This document shows positions 12,931 to 38,101 of a stretch of 64,000 bases of DNA, one piece after another. Source of the DNA: Chiloscyllium plagiosum (taxonomy: Eukaryota); assembly GCF_004010195.1 (NCBI RefSeq), contig NC_057756.1, positions 275,401 through 339,400 on the forward strand, in the 5' to 3' direction. Each line of letters opens with the position of its first letter. The first letter of the stretch is position 1. A program made the position numbers and the translations under genes. The notes below the pieces were generated by a model. The model had not been told where the DNA came from. It saw only the letters and a list, made by a program, of their open reading frames with translations, and ran no database searches.

Positions 12931-13863
12931 TATCTGCAAATTTGGAGAAGATTTGTACTTCAGATTGTGGATCAGGTTGCAAATTTACAAATCCCTACAG
13001 GCACAATATATTCATACTAGCCTGAAGGTGGAAAACCAATGCCATCCAACCAAGCACCACCCACCAAAAACTGTACTTCCTACGAGAATGTCTCAGGAAA
13101 TGATGTGTCAAATACAAACCACCACTCAATACCCCACAAGCCAGGAGAACAGCAGAACAGAACAGTTCCTGAATGGTATGAGAAAATGATAAATGATGCC
13201 CACAACCGACTCCAAATACAAACTGCAAATTTCGTGCCGACAAACTCTGGACACTAACACGACTGACCATGAATAGACAAGTACGCTAGAACGAGCCACC
13301 AACACTAAACATCAGACCAAGATAAAGAAAAGACCAGCTCTACAAGAAAAATGGGCCGAGCTCTCACACAACAATAATACAGACAATTCAGAGACTTGGA
13401 TAAAGCACCTGTCTGACCAACCACACTCAGACAAGGAAAAAGCCGTCCTAATACAGGGACGTGGATAAAAAAGGACTTCCTAGCAGCACTGGAATCCACT
13501 CCGAAAGACAACGGACTTACAAGAAACCCAGCAGACTGTCAGACAAACAGTAGCACCAACATTAAGCAGAAAGGACACTCTCAACATACTGGAAAAAGGA
13601 AAGCCCTGGAAGGACTCAAAAGACAGAAATATCATAATCATGCCAGCAGACAGAGGGCGCATGACTATCTTCTTGAACAAAACACAATACATTGAAAAAG
13701 CAAACACACTACTCACATATACTGATACCTACCAACAGGTGGCGATGGACCCAACTCCACAGCTAGAAAACAGCAATACAGCACTACTGAGAAAACTACA
13801 CAAGACAGGTGAGATTAACAAGATGGTCCTCCAAAGAATAAACTGCGAAGGATCCAACACACG

Positions 13864-14160
13864 GGCGGCACGGTGGCTCAGTGGTTAGCACTGCTGCCTC
13901 AGTGCCAGGGACCTAGGTTCGATCCCAGTCTTGGGAGAGTGTGTGGAGTTTGCACATTCTTCCCATGTTTGAGTGGGTTTTCTCTGGGTGCTCCAGTTTC
14001 ATCACACAGTCCAAAGATGTGCAAGTCAGGTGAATTGGCCATTCTAAATTGCCCATAGTGTTTAGGTGCATTACGTAGAGGGAAATAGGTCTGGGTGGGT
14101 TACTCTTCGAAGGGTCGGTGTGGTCAAAGCGCCTGTTTCCACACAGTAGGGAATCTAATC
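13864..14160 (+). mobile_element. HE1-like tRNA-derived V-SINE
   Basis: Box A TGGCTCAGTGG, box B GGTTCGATCCC, V domain and TCTAATCT tail. Confidence 0.9.
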
Positions 14161-14399
14161 TCATCTAGTTTCCGTGGATTACTAAAAAGGCACATAAACA
14201 AGGGCATCCCCCCCCCCCCCCTTCCCCCCCCCAGACCTATAGTTTCACTTCCTGGTACACCAACATACAGACCTGCAAAGGAACTGCAACGCGAACTGAA
14301 ACACCTAGTAGAAGCCTCAACCCATTCCATCCTCTCCAAACTCCAGGAATTCCTTAACATCAAAGACACCAAGGTAGCAGACAACGAGGTCATTGTTTC

Positions 14400-16476
14400 T
14401 GTAGGAAAAGGATCTGCCACTCTGCTTACCCATAGCGTGGCGACAAACACAGAAGCTGGCCTGTAAAACACAAACCAGGCCTGCCAACATATACAGAAAC
14501 TACCCAGAGTGCTCTAGTCTTGACCAAACAAGCTAACAAAAAAAACATACATGGCCAAGCCATTTCCTAGACCAGAGAATACACTCCCTATATCAGTCCC
14601 TTTCACAATAAATCCCCAGTTCAGATAAACACTGCAACACCCTAAGGACAGGCTCATTTCTCATTGATGAAAATGTGTTGCTGGAAAAGCGCAGCAGGTC
14701 AGGCAGCAGCCAGGGAACAGGAAAATCAACGTTTCGGGCATAAGCCCTTCTTCAGGAATGAGGAAAGTTTGTCCAGCAGGCTAAGATAAAAGGTAGGGAG
14801 GAGGGACTTGGGGGAGGGGTGTCAGAAATGTGATATGTGGAAAGAGGTCAAGGTGAGGGTGATAGGTCAGACTGGGGTGGGGGCGGAGAGGTCACGAAGA
14901 AGATTGCAGGTTAGGAAGGCGGTGCTGAATTTGATGGATTTGACTGAGACAGTAGGATCATAGTCTCCACCCTAAATAACCCCCTTACCCCATCAAGTAT
15001 GCCCTGTTACCGACTCACCCTGCCTCAAATATCCTCACCCCTCCTCCATCCAATTCCAATCCCTCCTCTTTCACACATCCTACCTCAGGGAAACGCTGAC
15101 CTGCTGAGAGGTGCGTTAGAATTTTATAACCTACCTGACTGGGGGGCTCCAGTGCATAAGTGTTGATGAGATAGGCCAACATGTTACAAAGCCATAAGGA
15201 AATCACATCACCCAGCAGTCGAGGAAACAGACCACTGCAAAGAGACACATAGCAATGAGCATGAGGTTCACACCAGCCTGTTTTACACTGGAACAACAGA
15301 TTCACACCAGGCTGCTCCAAACTGGGCTCAGAGAAAGATTCACACATGCCCAATCCACACTGGGACCAGACAGAGATTCACACCAAACTGCGCCACACTG
15401 AACTCAGTGATTCACACAGTCCTTCTCTACATTGGGCTCAGAGAGAGAAATTCACATTAGATTAAGTGACCAGACTACAGCGGAGATGGAAATGTGTTGC
15501 TGGAGAAGCGCAGGAGGTCAGGCAGCATCTAGGGAACAGGAGAATCGACGTTTCGGGCATTAGCCCTTCTTCAGGAATGGAAAGTTGGTCCAGCAGGCTA
15601 AGATAAAAGATAGGGAGGTGGGACTTGGGGGAGGGGCGTCGGAAATGTCTTAGGTGGAAAGAGGTCAAGGTGAGGGTGATAGGTCAGACTGGGGTGGGGG
15701 CGGAGAGGTCGGGAAGAAGATCTCAGGTTAGGAAGGCGGTGCTGAATTCGATGGAACCGGATTCAGCACCACCTTCCTAACCTGCAATCTTCTTCCTGAC
15801 CTCTCCGCCCCCACCTCAGTCTGACCTATCACCCTCACCTTGATCTCTTTCCACATATCACATTTCCGACACCCCTCCCCCAAGTCCCTCCTCCCTACCT
15901 TTTATCTTAGCCTGCTGGACAAACTTTCCTCATTCCTGAAGAAGGGCTTATGCCCGAAACGTCGATTCTCCTGTTCCCTGGCTGCTGTCTGACCTGCTGC
16001 GCTTTTCCAGCAACACATTTTCAGCTCTGATCTCCAGCATCTGCAGACCTCACTTTCTCCTCATTTCTCATTGAAATCAATACCACATACACAAAGAGGC
16101 AGAGCGAGAGGCCTCAGAAGAATTTGCTCACAGTAGGAACACAATGGACACACCTCATGCCAGGAGAAGGGACATTAGCACATATTCGCACCGACAAGAA
16201 ATACAATGAAGAATCCTCCAGAAGACATTGTCACCCACTCATGGAGATGGCTGGAATCTCCCTGTCAATTATAAATGAATTGCTACTGCTGGACACTTGA
16301 TTACCTGCATTTTCTGTTCTGGGAAGAGAGCATTTGGTCACCTGCGCAGAGAATCAGTTCTGTGTCAGCCCAGTTATTTGCTCTTCCTCTGTATCACTTT
16401 GTTCAATAAACGGCTTGTCTATTTCACTACAATCCATGTTTGTGGTCTCTGTTCAATTGGGCTCAATTCTCCAACA
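14400..16476 (+). mobile_element. ERV-1 5' LTR, interrupted by a PLE at 14668-16060
   Basis: TG...CA ends and AATAAA at 16405-16410. Followed by ATTTGGTG (PBS position). Homologous to 21276-22878. Confidence 0.88.
14668..16060. mobile_element. Composite PLE insertion: inverted termini with three hammerhead cores and ~520 bp of filler
   Basis: 15-bp TSD CTCATTTCTCATTGA (14653-14667, 16060-16074). Minus copies at 14668-14950 and ~15480-15755; plus copy at ~15756-16060. Confidence 0.85.
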
Positions 16477-17089
16477 ATTTGGTGTTAATCAGTCTCTCAA
16501 CAGGGTAAACGAACCTAACATTTTAAACTGTGCCCAGTTTGGACCTGGCAGCTAGCTTTGCCTCAACGGGTCGTACTTAGAAAGGGTTGGGCGTCTGGAG
16601 GAAGTAGCCATAATTCTAATCTACTGTGGCAGCATTTTGGCACTGAGCTGCTTTATCCTACTTGAACAGCAGGCCAGAGAGGTCCCAAATTGTACCCATT
16701 TAGGCAGACGTGTGAACTGACTTCAGTGGGAAGAGCAGCAGTATGCTTAATGCAGCCAGGAGAAAGACAGACCAGGAGGGGCTCCCAGCAAGATATGAGG
16801 AGAGAGTGCTATTAAATTCTCGCTGACTAAATCAACAGATTGGTGAAATGGACAAAGAGAAGCAGCTGCTGGCCTGTTTCTTTGTCTTCTGGTTTGCATT
16901 GTATGCTTGTGGTTTTCTTAAGTGTTTGTTTTGTGGTTTGTAAGTATTAGTTTGTGGCCTGTCATTGCATGCCTGAGTGATTTTCAAAGCATCCCTCTGC
17001 CTTGGGCTGTCTGGAGGCAGGTGCATTCGCTGAATTCCTCAAAGCTGCGTTCAAAGCCTGCAAGCTCAACTCAGAAGCCGTTTTACAGC

Positions 17090-18950
17090 ATGGGAGCACA
17101 GAAATATACCTACTGCCGGGGAGTGCCAATCACTGGCACATCAATGCCCGAGGTGAGAGGACAATGGGTCACGGCCACCAACAATGTACAAAAAGATGCT
17201 TAAAAGGCACGGTAAATATGTTACCTTCAAGACAAAGATAGGAGATCCTCGAACACCCAGGTCCCTGGCAGACACAGCGCTCAAAGAAACACAGGACAGC
17301 TGGTGCGTTATCCCCTTCACCTGGGACCTGCACACTTGGTCCAACGGAAATTGGTCACATGGGAGGGGCCTTTGAAATTTCAAGGAAATTGACTATTTGA
17401 CTACGGCCATTGTGGGAGGAAATGGGGACCCCTCCTGGGACACTGCCTACCTGCTGTAGTGTCTGGGGAAGTTCAAGGAAGTTGCAAAGTGGCACCAGCC
17501 CTCAAAGGCAAAGATCACAGCCAGAGCCCCCCTAAAACAGACCCCCGCCACAACCCCCAGTCACAGCCCCGCTGCCCTATGCTGCACAGTCCCCCAAACT
17601 ACCCCGACCATCTCCAGAATCAGACCCGCACGCTCGAGGAGGTATCTGCATTCATCACCACCCAGCGGCGGAGGGATCGCAGCGAGACACAAAGGCCATG
17701 GGGTGGCCCAATTCAGCACCGCTGTCAGACACCGCCAAAAACATAATTACCAGCAGCACAATTGCCGCTGCTGTCCAAAACCAACAGGACACAGACCATC
17801 AAATCACTCACAGTGATCAGCTCCACTCTGATGGACAAACTCTGGACAATGCTGAGGTTTGGACTATGCTGCAGGTTGCCCCAGACCCCTTATAAAGGCC
17901 AATGCCATTCCATAATTGGCTAGTGCAAATTTCAGCCATCTATAATTGCCTGCCCCAAGCTATAAAGACCCTGCTTCCAACTCTATTTTGATTTAGTCCC
18001 TACCCTCCCCTTCACTGTTTTGATCACACAGCACTGCACTTTGATGTGAAGGGCATTGCTTGTCACTGGCCACTCGGGTGTTTTCCTATCTTCCTGGTGG
18101 TGGAAATTGAATAAAGATTCGTGCACTTTGTGTCTTTCACTGTGTCTCACACCTGCACACACACACCATGGGTGCTGGGGGAAAAAAATAAGCACTACCG
18201 CACTTAGGTGGTAGTGTGGGGGTTAAAGGAAGAAAAAAAAAGTGAAAAAAAAATTAAAAAAAAGAAAAAAAAGAAAAAAAAAGACCCTGCTGCAACTAGC
18301 ATACGTATCCCACTCCCCCGTTCCTCCGTAGAATTCCCTCCCCGAGCCTGGGACTCCCCTTCATACAGGAGCTCTGGCTAAACAATACTGTAAGAGGCCA
18401 TAAAAACAGCTGCATGCTGATTTTGGTGCTGTGACCCTGTGTCTGCAAAACGCAGATGAATCCCTACCAGACTTCATACCCATTTTAAAGAAGTCTGGGA
18501 TTGTTCAGCAGACATCCCATTGCTAGAAAGCGAACAACTTGAAGTACAGACCCTTGTAAACTGCATGTTGCCAGCCTAGGCTCAAATATATAAGTCACAA
18601 CTTATCCTGGCAAGCAGTAGAAGGGAGGGACATATTAACAACACTGAATCACCTAGACAGAAATCAGCCAGCTCCCAGCCAGAAAGAGATGTTCCCTGAG
18701 ATTGCCCAACTGGACCACCGGTCACACAACATCGGGCCACCACAACGGCTCAGGGGACGCCAGAGAGGGCAATGCTGGAACTGTGGGAGAGTGGGACATT
18801 GGGCTAGGTAGTGAAGGTCAGGAGTTAGGCAGGGTCGCCCAGACACCCCTACACCTCCCCAGCCCCCTGCAGCATTGCTACAGACCACTGCCCCCCCAGA
18901 GGCAGCCTCGATCGGATACATCTACCCTGACAAACCCCTTTACCCATGAC
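17090..18950 (+). pseudogene. gag: ERV-1 gag (frameshifted, with stops)
   Basis: MG start at 17090. CWNCGRVGHWAR zinc knuckle from 18773. Confidence 0.65.
17976..18280 (+). mobile_element. 5'-truncated poly(A)-tailed retrocopy (L1/Tx1-type 3' end) inside ERV-1 gag
   Basis: AATAAA, a hairpin CACTACC...GGTAGTG, an A-rich tail at 18226-18282, and TSD AAAGACCCTGCT (17964-17975, 18280-18291). Confidence 0.8.
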
Positions 18951-20077
18951 CAGGAATCCAACTTGGGCTGGAGGGATCCAACTCAGAGGGAAACTCTGCA
19001 GTCTGTTTCAATACCCCTTCTCCCACTCTCCGTCTGAAAATCCCATGATGCATGTCGAGGTTGGGGGCATGGCTCATTTATTTCCTGGAGGGGTCCAGGG
19101 CCATGCATTCATCTGCACCTCGCTCAGCGGTACTCACCCCAAGCTCCAACACAGTCCAAACCATGGGGGCCTCAGGGATACCCATGGTATAACCGCTCTC
19201 CCATCCCGTGCAGTTCAGCGTTGGACCCGCAACAGTCCCAGATGCTGCAATCATCTCTGCCTCCTCTCCAGTAGCCCTCCTGGGTCACCAGACACTATGC
19301 AAGTTAAATGCCAGCATCCCCTGCTCTCTCCAAGGACTTCTGCTCAAGACCTCAGAAGCAAACTATTCTATGCTATGAGCAACCATCTCCCACAACCCTT
19401 AACCCATCGCCCCCCATCAGGCAAACCGCCACTCCGCCTGGTTGTGCCCACCAGAACCTATCTATGCCCTTCTTGACCCTCTCCTCTCCCAACTATGAAC
19501 CCCCACATTATTTTTCCTCCAGTGGTTGATATGACAGGCTGTTTTGACTGTCAATTTCACTGTGCAGCTTCTGGCCCACAGGAACCTGCCTCAACAAATG
19601 CTGCTCTCACAGACTCACATCTCCAGCTCACCTCCCCACTAACGATCATTGGTAGGTATTTTGTAGGACCGCAGGGTGTTGTAGCAGAAGGGCAACTCAG
19701 CTCAGAGTAGGCCGCGCTGGCCTGCAACGACCCAACGGCGGTCCTGCACATTCCCCTTATTGAAAGCCTGTGGCTCCCCAAAGATTTAGCAACAATGATA
19801 CTGCAGCCACCACTACATTCTACACCACTTTGGCAAGACAGAGACCCCTGAATAGAGATTGGACAGGACGACTTCTGTGCACGCTGCGCCCCCGCATTAC
19901 GACAAGCTCCTTTAATAAAACAGAGCCCAGGCACTGACCCCTCCTACAAGAGCCCCCTCTTATTAGCTGACCTCCCAAACTCACTGTGGGCACAGCACTC
20001 CAACCACACACGCCAGGTATTGTCTGCCCCACCACATTCAGTTTCACTCAGACAGGGAGCCATCCTCCCATCAGTGC

Positions 20078-20490
20078 AACAATACCCATTATCACACACA
20101 GCAGTAGAGGGGATCAAACCAGATATTCAGTCACTTCTGCAGCAGGAAATCCTAGTACTCACACCCAGCCCATGTAACATACCCATCTTACCATCCCAAA
20201 GCTCGGGAGACGCAGCAAATGGTGCTTTGGCATTCACAGCCCGGAGATCTTGCACATTGTTGATCCCTGCTCCCCAGTTGTCTTGGACACAAATACTATG
20301 CTGATCAGTATCCCCACCTCCACCATCTGCTTCTCTGTAATCAACCTATGTTCAGCCTTCTTTGCCATTAAATTGTCCCCTGAAAGCCAATACCTTTTTG
20401 CTTTTACATACGGCGGCTGCTAATATACATGGACCCAGCTTCCCCAAGGGTATGTGGACAGCCCCACAGTTTATGCTGCTGCAGTATATT
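20078..20490 (+). pseudogene. pol: ERV-1 RT N-terminal half (truncated before YxDD)
   Basis: QYPLS..VEGIKPDIQSLL..SPCNIPILP; FSVINLCSAFF..PESQYLFAFTY..YTWTQLPQGYVDSPTVY. Confidence 0.85.
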
Positions 20491-20859
20491 GCACCCTGTT
20501 CACCCTCCATCTACCATACCACTCCCAATCCTCTTCCTTCTGGAAGCTTACCACCTGCAGCAAATGTGCCCTCCCTGCCCTCAACAAGGTACTCCCCCTA
20601 TTTGTGCCCACTTATGCAACCCTGTGCCTGGACATAGGGGCACATCAGCTGGCCACCAAGCTACAGAAGATAAGGGAATGCCGCAGCTGAAGTGCTTGCC
20701 CAGCTGAATGCGGCAGCTATCACCTTTTGCACTGTCGCCCTACAAAAATCAAATGGCCACAGACTACTTGTTGGCCGAAAAAGAGGGCACATGCACCATC
20801 ATTGGCGTGGACTACTGCACCCTTACCCCAGCTAAAATATAACAAACCTGACGCACCAC

Positions 20860-21261
20860 ATCTGACAGGCTGCTGCTGTCCTCCATGGACAAGAGTCCAA
20901 CTGGGACTTGTGGAGCTGGGCAACCTCCTGGCTTGGCTCATGGGCCACAGCCCTGCTGGAGGGTCTGATGTCCCTTATTGCCATTCTTATGGGTATCATA
21001 GTCCTGATCATGCCCCCCCCCCCCCCCCCCCNNNNNNNNNNNNNNNNNNNNNNNNNNNNNNNNNNNTTGTGTACAACATTGTTACACCCTGCCCCTGTCA
21101 CTACCCAACTAATGCAAGTCCACTGCACTGACATTCCCACCCCTGACACAGCCTCCACCCTCTCAGGTTCAGACACTGACGACTACCTCTCTGACACCGA
21201 ACCCCCACCACTTGAACCTCCCTGGATCTGGCTACAGTACCCCTTTTCAATCTTCCCTTAA
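20860..21261 (+). pseudogene. env: ERV-1 env remnant (Trp-rich membrane-proximal region, TM helix, cytoplasmic tail)
   Basis: WSWATSWLGSWATALLEGLMSLIAILMGIIVLIM. The reading frame ends just before the PPT. Confidence 0.55.
21032..21066. other. Assembly gap (35 N) after a poly-C run
   Basis: N run. Confidence 1.
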
Positions 21262-21275
21262 AATGATAAAGGGAT

Positions 21276-22878
21276 TGTGAGAAAAAGACCTGCTACCCTG
21301 CTCATTCACAGCAAGGCCACACAAACAGAAGCTGACCTGTAAAACACAAACCAAGCCTGCCAACATATACAGAAACTACCCAGAGTGCACCAGTCTTTAC
21401 CAAACAGGCCAGCAAAAACCAGACATGGCCAAGCCCCTTCCTAGGCCAGAGAATACACTCCCTAAAACAGCTTTTCCCAATCAGTCTCCAGCCTAGATTA
21501 ACACTGCAGTCCCAACATCTAAGGGCAAGCTCATTTCCCACTGAGGTAAAAACAATGACTGCAGATGTTGGAAACCAGATTCTGGATTAGTCGTGCTGGA
21601 AGAGCACAGCAGTTCAGGCAGCATCCAAGGAGCAGCGAAATCGACGTTTCGGGCAAAAGCCCTTCATCATGCCCTGGGGTTGAAGTGTTCTGAGGCGGAA
21701 GATGAGGCGTTCTTCCTCCAGGCATCTGGTGGTAGGGGAGCGGCAGTGAAGGAGGCCCAGGACCTCCATGTCCTCGGCAGAGTGGGAGGGGGAGTTGAAA
21801 TGTTGGGCCACGGGGCGGTGTGGTTGAGTGGTGCGGGTGCCCCGGAGATGTTCCCTAAAGCGCTCTGCTAAGAGGCGCCCAGTCTCCCCAATGTAGAGGA
21901 GACCGCATCGGGAGCAACGGATACAATAAATGATATTAGTGGATGTGCAAGTAAAACCTTGATGGATGTGGAAGGCTCCTTTAGGGCCTTGGATAGAGGT
22001 GAGAGAGGAGGTGTGGGCGCAGGTTTTACAGTTCCTGCGATGGCAGGGGAAAGTGCCAGGATGGGAGGGTGGGTTGTACTGGGGCATGGACCTGACCAGG
22101 TAGTCACCGTTCCCTCCGTCCTACCTGCCTATCTCCTTTTCCACCTATCCACTCCATCCTCTCCTCCCTGACCTATCACCTTCATCCCCTCCCCCACTCA
22201 CCCATTGTACTCTATGCTACTTTCTCCCCACCCCCACCCTCCTCTAGCTTATCTCTCCACGCTTCAGGCTCTCTGCCTTTATTCCTGATGAAGGGTTTTT
22301 GCCCGAAACGTCAATTTCGCTGCTCCTTGGATGCTGCCTGAACTGCTGTGCTCTTCCAGCACCACTAATCCAGAATCATTTCCCATTGAAACTGATACCA
22401 TATACACAAACAGGCAGACCAAAATGCCCCAGAAGACTTCGCTCACAGGAGGAACACAATGGACACATCTGAATATCAGGAGAAGGGACACTTGCACATA
22501 TTCACACGGACAGGAAATACAATTAAGAATCCTCCAGAAGACGTTCTCACCCACTCATGGCGATGGCTGGAATCTCCTGTGTCAATTATAAATGAATTGC
22601 TACTGCTGGACACTTAAAAAACATAATGGAAATTAATCATTGTTTTAACTTCTTTACAAGTTTCAACATTGTACGATAACTGCTTCACAATTATCATATT
22701 TGTGTTATATCCCTATAAAGCATGCCTACACTTTCTGTTCGGTAAGCGCATTTGTCTATGTGCAGAGAATCAGTTCTAATTTCTCTCCCGCGATATCGCT
22801 TTGTGTAATAAACCGCTTGTCAATTTCACTACAATCCTCGTTTGCGGCCTCTGATCCATTGGGCTCAATTCTCCGAAG
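21276..22878 (+). mobile_element. ERV-1 3' LTR, interrupted by a PLE at ~21545-22375
   Basis: Starts TGTGAGA after the PPT; AATAAA at 22807-22812; ends GGGCTCAATTCTCC like the 5' LTR. Confidence 0.88.
21545..22375 (-). mobile_element. Neptune-type PLE fragment (GIY-YIG endonuclease) with an inverted terminus
   Basis: ORF 21614-22087 reads CHRRNCKTC..FTCTSTNIIYCIRCSRCGLLYIGETGRLLAERFREH. TSD TCATTTCCCA(C/T)TGA at 21531-21544 and 22376-22389. Confidence 0.88.
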
Positions 22879-22949
22879 GTTTCGTTCGGCTTCATGACTG
22901 CCTGATTCACGTCAATAAGTTTGGCCAAAGACACACTGGCCTCACCGCC

Positions 22950-23525
22950 AGTCAGGTTCTTTCCCAAGGTTTCACACACGGGATGCAATTCGCACAAACC
23001 AAGTTCTGCATTCAGTTAAAGTTTATTAAAGCTTCTACAAGCTAGCTGACCTTTTGACCTGCCCTCGCAGGCGTGCGAGTTTGAGTCAAAGTGAGGCCTT
23101 GAACAAAGAAAACACATCCCCTTTATATAGGTCAATGGCAATGCTCCCAGATGTTCTGGCCAGCCTACACAGTCACATGCCACCCAAGACAACCTCTAGT
23201 CATTCAGAGTCGCATGTTACCCCAGGTACAATGCCAGGGTGAGATCATCCTCAGAGATAATGCAAATGCTAATGCTCGAATCCTGGGGAATGGTGCTGCA
23301 GATGATTTCCTGACTCAGTGACTCCCCAAGACAATGTAGGTGGGACACATCTGTCCAGAAAGCATTTCTGAATGGAAGAGATTGAATGATAGTTTAACTT
23401 GACAATAGCAAGGGGTAGCAGCAGCAGCAGCAAGTGACAGTCTAATTGTAGTGGGGGCAATTAGCAATCCTTCATTGCCTTTAATATTAACGTCCAGAGA
23501 GATAGTACAATTTAATCTTTTAACA
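22950..23525 (-). mobile_element. Probable solo LTR inserted into the Penelope RT
   Basis: Interrupts collinear PLE RT. The minus strand starts TGTTAAAAG, with TATATAAA (~23122) followed by AATAAA (~23022). Left boundary approximate. Confidence 0.55.
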
Positions 23526-35570: not shown

Positions 35571-35696
35571 TTTTCCCTCTCCAATGATTTGATATTACAA
35601 TATCTATCCAATGGATGTCATTCATACGAAGCTTCTCATCACATGCCTTGTTTATGTCAAGGGTCGATTTTAATTAGACTGTCTGATGGCTTTCCT

Positions 35697-36307
35697 GCAC
35701 CTCCACACACATCATTTATTGCATCCGCTGCACCCGATGTGGCCTCCTCTATATTGGGGAGACAGGCCGCCTACTTGCGGAACGTTTCAAAGAACACCTC
35801 TGGGACACCCGGACCAACCAACCCAACCACCCCGTGGCTCAACACTTCAACTCCCCCTCCCACTCCACCAAGGACATGCAGGTCCTTGGACTCCTCCATC
35901 GCCAGACCATAGCAACATGATGTTTGGAGGAAGAGCGCTTCATCTTCCGCCTAGGAACCCTCCAACCACCAGGGATGAACTCAGATTTCTCCAGTTTCCT
36001 CATTTCCCCTCCCCCCACCATGTCTCAGTCAAATCCCTCGAACTCAGCACCGCCTTCCTAATCTGCAATCTTCTTCCTGACATCTCCGCCCCCACCCCCA
36101 CTCCGGCCAATCACCCTCACCTCGATCTCCTTCCACCTATCACATTTCCAACGCCCCTCCCCCAAGTCCCTCCTCCCTACCTTTTATCTTAGCCTGCTTG
36201 GCACACTTTCCTCATTCCTGAAGAAAGGCTCATGCCCGAAACGTCGATTCTCCTGCTCCTTGGATGCTGCCTGACCTGCTGCGCTTTTCCAGCAACACAT
36301 TTTCAGC
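35697..36307 (+). mobile_element. Neptune-type PLE fragment (GIY-YIG plus terminus with hammerhead core)
   Basis: CTSTHIIYCIRCTRCGLLYIGETGRLLAERF. 15-bp TSD TCTGATGGCTTTCCT at 35682-35696 and 36308-36322. Confidence 0.88.
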
Positions 36308-38101
36308 TCTGATGGCTTTCCTATCCAATACAAAGTCGAGCTATTCAGAACATGTACCTAAAAACACGTTGTAAGTGCGAAGTCTGGTTTGTAAAAATAC
36401 AACAGGAATGGGAAGTGAATTTTTTTACTGAATTGGAGGCAGAAACATTGTGAGAAGAGGGAAGTGAAGTGAGATAACTTGGACTCTTGCTGCAGGAGCC
36501 CATTTTCTGTGAACTACTGATAAGGGTCATTAGTTTCGTTTCTTGCCAAGTTTCATGTTGAGTTGGAACATTCCAGCATTGAGACACACCCTGTTTATGT
36601 ATTTTCAGTGGCTCGGAGATGAGGAATGTTCCCAGGCAGTTGCTTGGCTCAGAAAAGGTTTTTTTTTTAAAAACAAACTGAGCTCTGGGAAATAAAAAGT
36701 ACCTTGAACCAAACTCTGTCAACAATACCATCCTTCCTCTCTTAAGGCTGTTCCTAAGGTTTTTCTCTGAAAGACCTTAGGTGATCCACGTGGATTATTC
36801 TGACAATCAACAACAGCTCTCATTTACTCCCAGGGAGCAGGAGTCATTTCCTGAAATGAATCGATGGTTTTGTTTCCTTGTTTGCCTCATTGTTCAATCC
36901 TTGTGACTCTTTCGTCAGATTAAAAACTGGAACTTCAGCACTGTTTTCTCACTCTCTCCACAGATGCTGAATTGCTCCAGCAAATCCTGTCTGTCTTCGT
37001 TTCATATCGCCACTGTCCCTTATAAAATTTTAAGAAATTGTTTCCTTTGCGTATGGGGCTTTCTAAATGAAAAGTCCACTGACCCCACTCTCCAGCAGTT
37101 CTAACCAATCTAAGACTTGGGACAAATTCTACCCTGGTTTAGAGTGGGAGAAATGGGAATAAAGAGGTGAATGTAAGTTTACATAGAAGCGTACCCCATT
37201 CTTTTGAGCTTCTCACCAAGAGGAAGGGCATTCTGTCATCATCGATCCCATCAAGGCATTTGTTTCAGCTCTGTGGGGAAACAGGTCATCACCACACCAA
37301 GAGTCAACCAAATAAAGCTCCTCTGAACTGCTTCTAACACAAGAATATCCTTTCTTTAGAAAGGAGACCCAAACTGCAATGCAGAGCCTCAAGTGTAGGT
37401 TCACGAGAGGAGACCTGGCAGCATCAGCAGTATCAGTGATATGGGCCCAAAGTGGACTCCTGCAGCAGCGGAGTCGGGTTTGGGCTGGTGCGGTACCATC
37501 TACATTGGTGAGGTCCATCGAGGAATCAGTGTCAAGGGCATCGATGGAGGTGAGATGGCACAGAAGAGTGGGCAATCTTCACTCCAGCAGCAGAGGGGAC
37601 TCATGCCTGACCACCAGGCCCATGGCCCAGTACTTAACAAGGAGATTGGACCCCTTCTCGCAGAGTCCTTTAAAGAACAAAAACTTTCAACTTAACAAGG
37701 ACTATAAAGATGAACACCAGGTCTTTATTTTTCTGCCTTTATACTCTTTATTTTGCTTTATTTCTCAGAGTTCTAAGAAGTCACGGAAGCCACATGGAGG
37801 CACTGAATAGGCTGAGGCTATTTTCTCTGGAGCATCAGACGCCAGAGGAGGTTTATAAAATCATGAGGTGCATGGATAGGGTGAATAGCCCAGGTAGAGG
37901 AGCCCAGAACCAGAGGGCATGGCTTTAGGTGGAGCAGGGAACATTAGCAGTAAGCTTTTCATGCAGAGGGTGGCACGCGTATGGAGTGAGCAGCCAGAGG
38001 AAGTGGACGAGGCTGGTACAATTACACTAGTTAGAAAGAAATTTGGATGGGTATATGAACAGGAAGGGTTGAGGGGGGATGTAGGCCAAAAGCTGGAAAA
38101 T
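36308..38101 (+). repeat. Segmental duplication copy B, part 2 (paralog of 8822-10650)
   Basis: Collinear high similarity, e.g. CTGATGGCTTTCCTATCCAATAC and CATTGAGACACAC blocks. Confidence 0.9.

Follow-up and report, generated by a model that had tools for sequence, protein, structure and literature searches.

The stretch from 14,400 to 22,878 of a 64-kb window of the Chiloscyllium plagiosum genome (GCF_004010195.1, NC_057756.1, positions 275,401-339,400, forward strand) raises the question of how Penelope-like elements (PLEs) of two different families came to lie at the same position in both long terminal repeats (LTRs) of one endogenous retrovirus. The window is the whole stretch of DNA that was analyzed, and all coordinates given here are window positions, with position 1 as its first letter. 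The precise parallel insertion of the two PLE families was confirmed as genuine and clean, in what is one case only. The explanation that we favour, with a probability of roughly 60%, is that the two families inserted separately at one 14-bp site long after the provirus had integrated, the short symmetric target TCA-N8-TGA being favoured by a modest bias in cutting and priming.

Insertion 1, located in the 5' LTR, is flanked by two identical copies (14/14) of the target duplication TCATTTCTCATTGA at 14654..14667 and 16061..16074 of the forward strand, and insertion 2, located in the 3' LTR, by the forward-strand copies TCATTTCCCACTGA at 21531..21544 and TCATTTCCCATTGA at 22376..22389, which match at 13 of 14 bases. 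The original prediction had given the strings and coordinates of both duplications as they are found here, with a single correction: its 5' duplication (14653-14667 and 16060-16074) lies at the right site and is too long. The C at 16060 represents the last base of the element, CTCC being the end of all four family A tails in the window, and the duplication of insertion 1 is therefore counted as 14 bp. Owing to microhomology of 1-2 bases at the junctions, the length of each duplication may be off by as much as 2 bases. The duplications align base for base between the two LTRs and begin at the aligned LTR positions 255 and 256. The target is a pseudo-palindrome, TCA-N8-TGA, with TCA at the edge of the duplication on both strands; each LTR contains this motif only twice, and neither LTR carries an insertion at the second occurrence (16265, 22582). 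In section 3.2 of PMC10531181, precise parallel insertions are defined by a shift of at most 1 base, and the present case comprises independent elements at homologous sites with duplications shifted by no more than 1 base. As a side observation, a family A open reading frame has at its end 10 bases (35999-36008) that are identical to the first part of the 3' LTR target (21530-21539), which may be chance.

Both inserts consist of a pseudo-LTR (pLTR) with an inverted tailless arm and a tail and are flanked by a duplication, which is the build of endonuclease-containing (EN+) PLEs. Insertion 1 belongs to family A and includes, from left to right, an inverted tailless pLTR arm (14668..14952, minus strand) that is 97% identical to the tailed arm, a captured non-PLE stretch of 530 bp (14953..15482, no strand assigned) that has no other match in the window and contains a 38-bp unit three times at 15293-15407, a second inverted pLTR arm (15483..15755, minus strand) that is an older copy with 92% identity to the other two arms, and a pLTR (15761..16060, plus strand) with a hammerhead-like motif (core at 15936) and a complete tail ending in CTCACTTTCTCC. 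The arrangement of non-PLE DNA beside an older pLTR copy at 14953-15755 looks as if the reverse transcriptase (RT) had jumped onto read-through RNA from another locus. Insertion 2 belongs to family B and starts on the left with a hammerhead-like motif and a complete tail ending in CATTGTTTTTACC (21545..21669, minus strand), followed by a coding piece of a GIY-YIG endonuclease of the Neptune/Nematis type with a CX4CXXC linker motif (21670..22117, minus strand; PF01541, E value 1.1e-5) and an inverted tailless pLTR arm (22118..22375, plus strand) that is 97% identical to the tailed arm over 92 nt. At about 21670 the endonuclease piece meets the hammerhead directly at a shared ATGA, and the intervening stretch of other copies is skipped. 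The hammerhead-like motif of the pLTRs displays the core and a 4-bp stem II; Rfam yielded no match at the gathering score, and folding was not better than that of shuffled sequences.

The deduced protein of insertion 2 has its closest named relatives in sharks and skates (best 89%), and its homologues carry an RT plus a GIY-YIG domain. RT sequence is found in neither insert, and a telomerase-like RT is present only in the homologous proteins. Because of its linker, which reads CHRRNCKTC, insertion 2 was assigned to the Neptune/Nematis-type PLEs, which are defined by a CX2-5CxxC linker upstream of the GIY-YIG domain (PMC8557442); this sequence-based assignment does not tell Neptune and Nematis apart. 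A label as member of the Penelope/Poseidon clade was dropped, since a Cys linker between RT and endonuclease is present. In the test for a GIY-YIG endonuclease, insertion 1 was found to be without a coding piece, and its family A sister at 35687-35989 shows a protein identity of 74%; the family A coding copy of the window is cut downstream of the position of the Cys linker.

The two inserts differ in hammerhead core, loop, tail ends, content and the side that holds the complete tail, as the original prediction had noticed. Their terminal modules are 77% alike, and each has sisters of 93-94% identity elsewhere in the window. Moreover, position 8 of the duplications is occupied by T in one pair and by C in the other, in each case the variant of the LTR concerned. 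The LTRs are about 16-20% diverged (identity 82-86%), with Kimura two-parameter (K2P) distances of 0.204 and 0.163 for the two halves, as compared with 0.031 over 263 nt for the arm pair of insertion 1 and 0.033 over 92 nt for that of insertion 2. Two independent insertions, rather than one copied with the LTR, are thus well supported by the two families, by arms far younger than the LTR divergence and by the LTR-specific letter at position 8, and the earlier claim to this effect holds. If the inverted arms are taken as made at insertion, the K2P distances further indicate that the two insertions were roughly contemporaneous and far more recent than the divergence of the LTRs. A single insertion that reached the other LTR through LTR duplication or gene conversion, with divergence or replacement afterwards, might account for terminal modules whose likeness comes near the LTR identity, but it fails to explain the close sisters of each insert elsewhere, the 3% divergence of the arms, the LTR-specific variants in the duplications and the differences in content and tail side; we regard it, together with an assembly error, as highly improbable. 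With respect to the assembly, raw reads from 4 of 21 listed runs (12.9 million reads) were aligned on 16030-21575; read counts taken from the listed rows are lower bounds, and the tables were dominated by PLE tails and one short repeat. Among the matches listed, no read or contig spans a PLE-LTR junction, as might be expected of an erroneous assembly, but contigs of run X1 match the provirus interior at 99-100%.

The two LTRs belong to one integration of one endogenous retrovirus, which interrupts an older PLE. The 5' LTR (TG...CA; 14400..16476, plus strand) contains insertion 1 and the 3' LTR (21276..22878, plus strand), the terminal bases of which have decayed, contains insertion 2. The provirus is bounded by a 5-bp target duplication, GTTTC, with its left copy at 14395..14399 and its right copy at 22879-22883, both on the plus strand. 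To its left lies the degraded RT region of the older host PLE (13484..14399, plus strand), which is interrupted by a short repeat near 13860-14160 and whose best match, P0011, carries RVT_1; to its right the RT frame broken by the provirus is resumed directly behind the 3' LTR (22879..22953, plus strand), as judged against closer homologues. Continuity of this frame was assessed with 22 homologues, four of which were too short, against a null of 2000 random pieces: 13 of the 18 usable homologues gave p<0.01, six surpassed all random pieces, and five gave no signal. No continuation was obtained with three distant reference proteins, and a word-index search was likewise empty. The flanking GTTTC duplication and the resumed RT frame show that the LTRs belong to a single integration, and the predicted presence of a PLE in each LTR of one provirus at the homologous position thereby stands, with LTR positions 255/256, the GTTTC flanks and the resumed frame as its basis. 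Two LTRs, a short flanking duplication, a polypurine tract, retroviral gene remnants and continuous host flanks were all found.

The interior of the provirus (16477..21275, plus strand) is degraded, with reading frames broken throughout. It contains a zinc knuckle (18560-18808), RT pieces resembling that of Moloney murine leukemia virus (19852-20420; E values 5e-4 and 7e-6), an env-like membrane anchor recognized by eye at about 20866-21030 and the polypurine tract (21260-21275); no primer-binding site was identified. About 17976-18290 is occupied by a short repeat of very high copy number, and an AT-rich stretch of about 105 bp in the 3' LTR (about 22617-22720) is missing from the 5' LTR and has no other match in the window. 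Altogether, 14395-22953 represents a three-layer nesting of PLEs in both LTRs of a provirus that splits the RT frame of an older PLE.

The letters at the junctions were then considered with regard to the target preference of the two families. T follows all seven tail ends of families A to C in the window. In the 12.9 million raw reads, family A tail junctions gave P(T) of at least 0.82, P(C|T) of at least 0.44 and P(A|TC) of at least 0.36, so that TCA is present at no fewer than 13% of these junctions, about 7 times the 1.8% or so expected from the base composition of the window. The loose ends behind the family A tail among the listed rows numbered at least 5050 at 16060, 13073 at 16061, 6589 at 16062 and 3724 at 16063. 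Beyond this bias of 1-3 bases, the sequence that flanks the tail in about 28,000 family A junction reads is near random, with an agreement of 0.33-0.36 over 30 letters. The sequence preference had been called strong, which these data do not bear out. On the target side, the duplication copies begin with T in two of three non-focal cases of the window (729 and 35682, not 59447). A third fold-back insertion, at 729-983, has a duplication of 13-14 bp with a T start on both strands, and the 15-bp duplication of a tailless family A insertion at 35682-36322 starts with 6 bases, TCTGAT, that match the continuation of the element, which suggests pairing of the primer with the RNA. R2-like site-specific retroelements have a long conserved target at most insertions; such a target is absent here, the flanks of family A and family B tails having an agreement of 0.33-0.36 over 30 letters, and this class was rejected.

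Three side observations may be added. The family A fold-back at 729-983 is nested in the terminal module of a different repeat that also bears a hammerhead (core near 660). Contigs of run X1, reading from 16061 back to 16030, contain the tail in tandem copies like those of Drosophila Penelope, for which one or two repeats of 34-37 bp are described (PMC2377424). At least 10 raw reads among the listed rows contain a family A tail that faces a family B-like tail within 150 bases, as compared with about 4 expected by chance in a hand estimate, and could reflect either reuse of a site or only regional clustering.

How much of the coincidence a modest bias would explain was estimated per provirus. 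With nine PLE events in the 64-kb window, a hit in both LTRs of one provirus is about 1% likely at the local PLE density. With uniform choice of the site, the chance of the same site is 0.0015 and the overall chance 1.6e-5. With the bias acting on both nicks 14 bases apart, the chance of the same site increases to 0.017-0.06 and the overall chance to 2-6e-4, and the focal site draws 6-16% of the LTR insertions when the read weights are applied to both nicks. Under a modest symmetric bias the coincidence is thus 10-40 times easier to obtain and still uncommon. Pure coincidence in a PLE-dense region, selected from very many windows and pairs of repeats, gains from the 1% figure and from the large size of the scan; it must contend with the uniform chance of about 1.6e-5 even at a fixed duplication length and with a site that bears the read-enriched junction letters on both strands, and appears improbable to us. 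As for the supply of sites and elements, the tails of family A occur roughly once per 47 kb and those of family B once per 185 kb, and very rough figures from read depth, which is not equal to copy number, point to 20-35 copies of the LTR in the genome and about 100 of its 16215-16399 part. A scan of metagenome and viral contigs for the PLE end patterns revealed no locus.

The original prediction saw in this LTR family a recurrent target. In such a view, the endonuclease of the Neptune-type element would recognize a longer stretch of sequence or a shape, possibly by way of its Cys linker, and copies of the LTR would be hit repeatedly at the same position. The coincidence of both boundaries across two families and the rarity that a modest bias leaves are in line with such a strong hotspot, as are the proposal of the linker as a targeting aid in Neptune PLEs (PMC8557442), the single-position hotspots of Alu in other repeats (PMC2836564) and the emptiness of the second TCA-N8-TGA site in both LTRs, by which context past the six bases may matter. 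Against it stand the near-random flanks of the family A junctions and the one related LTR contig, from run X9 of a related species that is about 94-96% alike, in which the site is empty and which is the only such copy visible in the crowded tables. Two ways in which the site might be singled out also found no support. Likeness of the target to the family A tail in a tandem-repeat match had a score of 8, which 5.7% of background 18-mers and several other positions of the LTR also attain, and tail mimicry was dropped; a hairpin or cruciform was rejected with z-scores of -0.7 to +1.1 in all eight stretches, so that the predicted structure preference receives no support from folding at the site. 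A strong hotspot is considered unlikely, less so than coincidence alone. A feature of the LTR other than its sequence, such as an open state of the chromatin or local fragility upstream of the promoter, could expose the position in both LTRs, in keeping with nested LTR elements of plants, whose insertion reflects nucleosome patterns and shows a weak preference for palindromes (PMC6911290). By itself it leaves the base-exact boundaries unexplained, the provirus was already old and degraded, and folding near the site was no better than that of shuffles, which makes this possibility very doubtful.

Under the favoured explanation of separate insertions at a short symmetric target, the shared duplication, the two families, their ages and the fold-back-plus-tail build are the observed parts, from which we infer the steps of nicking and priming. 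Two nicks would be made 14 bases apart, one in the bottom strand at the left edge and one in the top strand at the right edge, each leaving a primer that ends in TGA-3'. RT would then proceed from both primers, starting at the RNA tail in one case and at the tailless start, 34 or so bases away, in the other, and the two products would join in the middle. Template jumps could have given rise to the captured DNA of insertion 1 and to the direct join of endonuclease and hammerhead in insertion 2. Since the apparent orientation would depend on which primer takes which start, a swap would place the tail on the opposite side with the same cuts, and the opposite orientation of the inserts needs no different cut. 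The high PLE density would provide repeated tries. The bias itself is probably due in part to the endonuclease and in part to pairing of 1-2 bases of the primer end with the RNA. As regards the predicted role of the GIY-YIG endonuclease, part of the modest bias may stem instead from primer-RNA pairing by the RT. A more specific version can be put forward tentatively, and we hold it less probable than its opposite: a dimer of the Neptune-type PLE protein would nick both strands, preferably 14 bases apart after (T)GA, TCA-N8-TGA sites would act as base-exact and orientation-free hotspots across diverged families, and the LTR pair would represent a natural replicate of the cut. The fixed spacing of 14 bases is an extrapolation from three insertions.

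Several points weigh against this explanation. If the T, C, A bias acts on one nick only, the chance of the same site is 0.003-0.0045 and the overall chance 3e-5 per provirus, and the weighting of two nicks assumes a fixed 14-bp spacing taken from three fold-backs, two of them focal. A single coincidence of 2-6e-4 per provirus, even with the bias, still needs luck or a stronger local preference, and such a preference at the site is possible. A faint consensus can be seen in the loose ends, by which the element itself would continue with T and then C or A, and the junction letters may belong to the element, templated or paired, instead of being chosen by the nuclease; when 10-15% of the reads are dropped as read-through, P(C|T) decreases to 0.36-0.32. 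Moreover, the weights were measured only for the T, C and A of the focal site, which makes the rank of the motif circular and leaves the enrichment as the only independent measure. Among the other insertions of the window, three tail ends have no duplication and one insertion has a possible 8-bp duplication with C instead of T as the first letter of its left copy. PLE duplications also vary elsewhere, with 8-10 bp in a rotifer (PMC3846280) and lengths described as "variable" (PMC8557442).

A comparison with known systems revealed both likenesses and differences. In EN+ PLEs, the unit consists of an inverted tailless pLTR and a pLTR with a tail of 30-40 bp, flanked by a duplication (PMC3846280; PMC8557442). 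Both inserts are built alike, and insertion 1 captured non-PLE DNA as did the Adineta copies; the duplications in those accounts are 8-10 bp or variable, whereas here 14 bp were found twice at one site, and the parts of them that were available do not describe a second use of one site. Targeting as discussed for Neptune and Nematis PLEs concerns microsatellites, and the target described here is not a microsatellite (PMC8557442). The Poseidon protein of the lizard Anolis (PAc) cleaves and extends both strands, with two RNA start sites that define the tail and a modelled dimer (PMC11167929). The present proposal resembles this system in that both strands would be nicked and extended and two RT starts would lead to tailed and tailless ends, and an AT-rich target with ATT may be listed as a further likeness. 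In contrast, Poseidon belongs to another clade, no fixed nick spacing is reported in the available part of that account, and its RT start is called not homologous to the cut DNA, whereas the junctions described here share 0-6 bases.

In mammals, parallel insertions and hotspots of retroelements are already known. Precise parallel insertions account for 0.18-0.29% of the cases in toothed whales, where independent elements likewise entered homologous sequence at one and the same base (PMC10531181), and human hotspots occur at fixed positions of a target repeat, some of them in both orientations (PMC2836564). Those reports deal with short and long interspersed elements, LTR elements and DNA elements at orthologous loci or in many repeat copies (PMC10531181; PMC2836564), whereas here PLEs of two families entered the paralogous LTRs of a single provirus, in one case only. 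No PLE counterpart, that is, no report of same-site PLE insertions or of shark PLE targets, was found in the literature searched, which is weak evidence of absence as most subscription papers lay outside its coverage. Little is known about target choice and cutting in PLEs, and the available accounts mention preferences described as "moderate", an ATT motif found in vitro and a bias towards microsatellites. The reuse of both boundaries by two families with tails on opposite sides is the pattern predicted by a symmetric double nick, and the tens of thousands of copies in the genome make this idea quick to test by computation. The case also serves as a warning that PLE insertions can be homoplastic markers.

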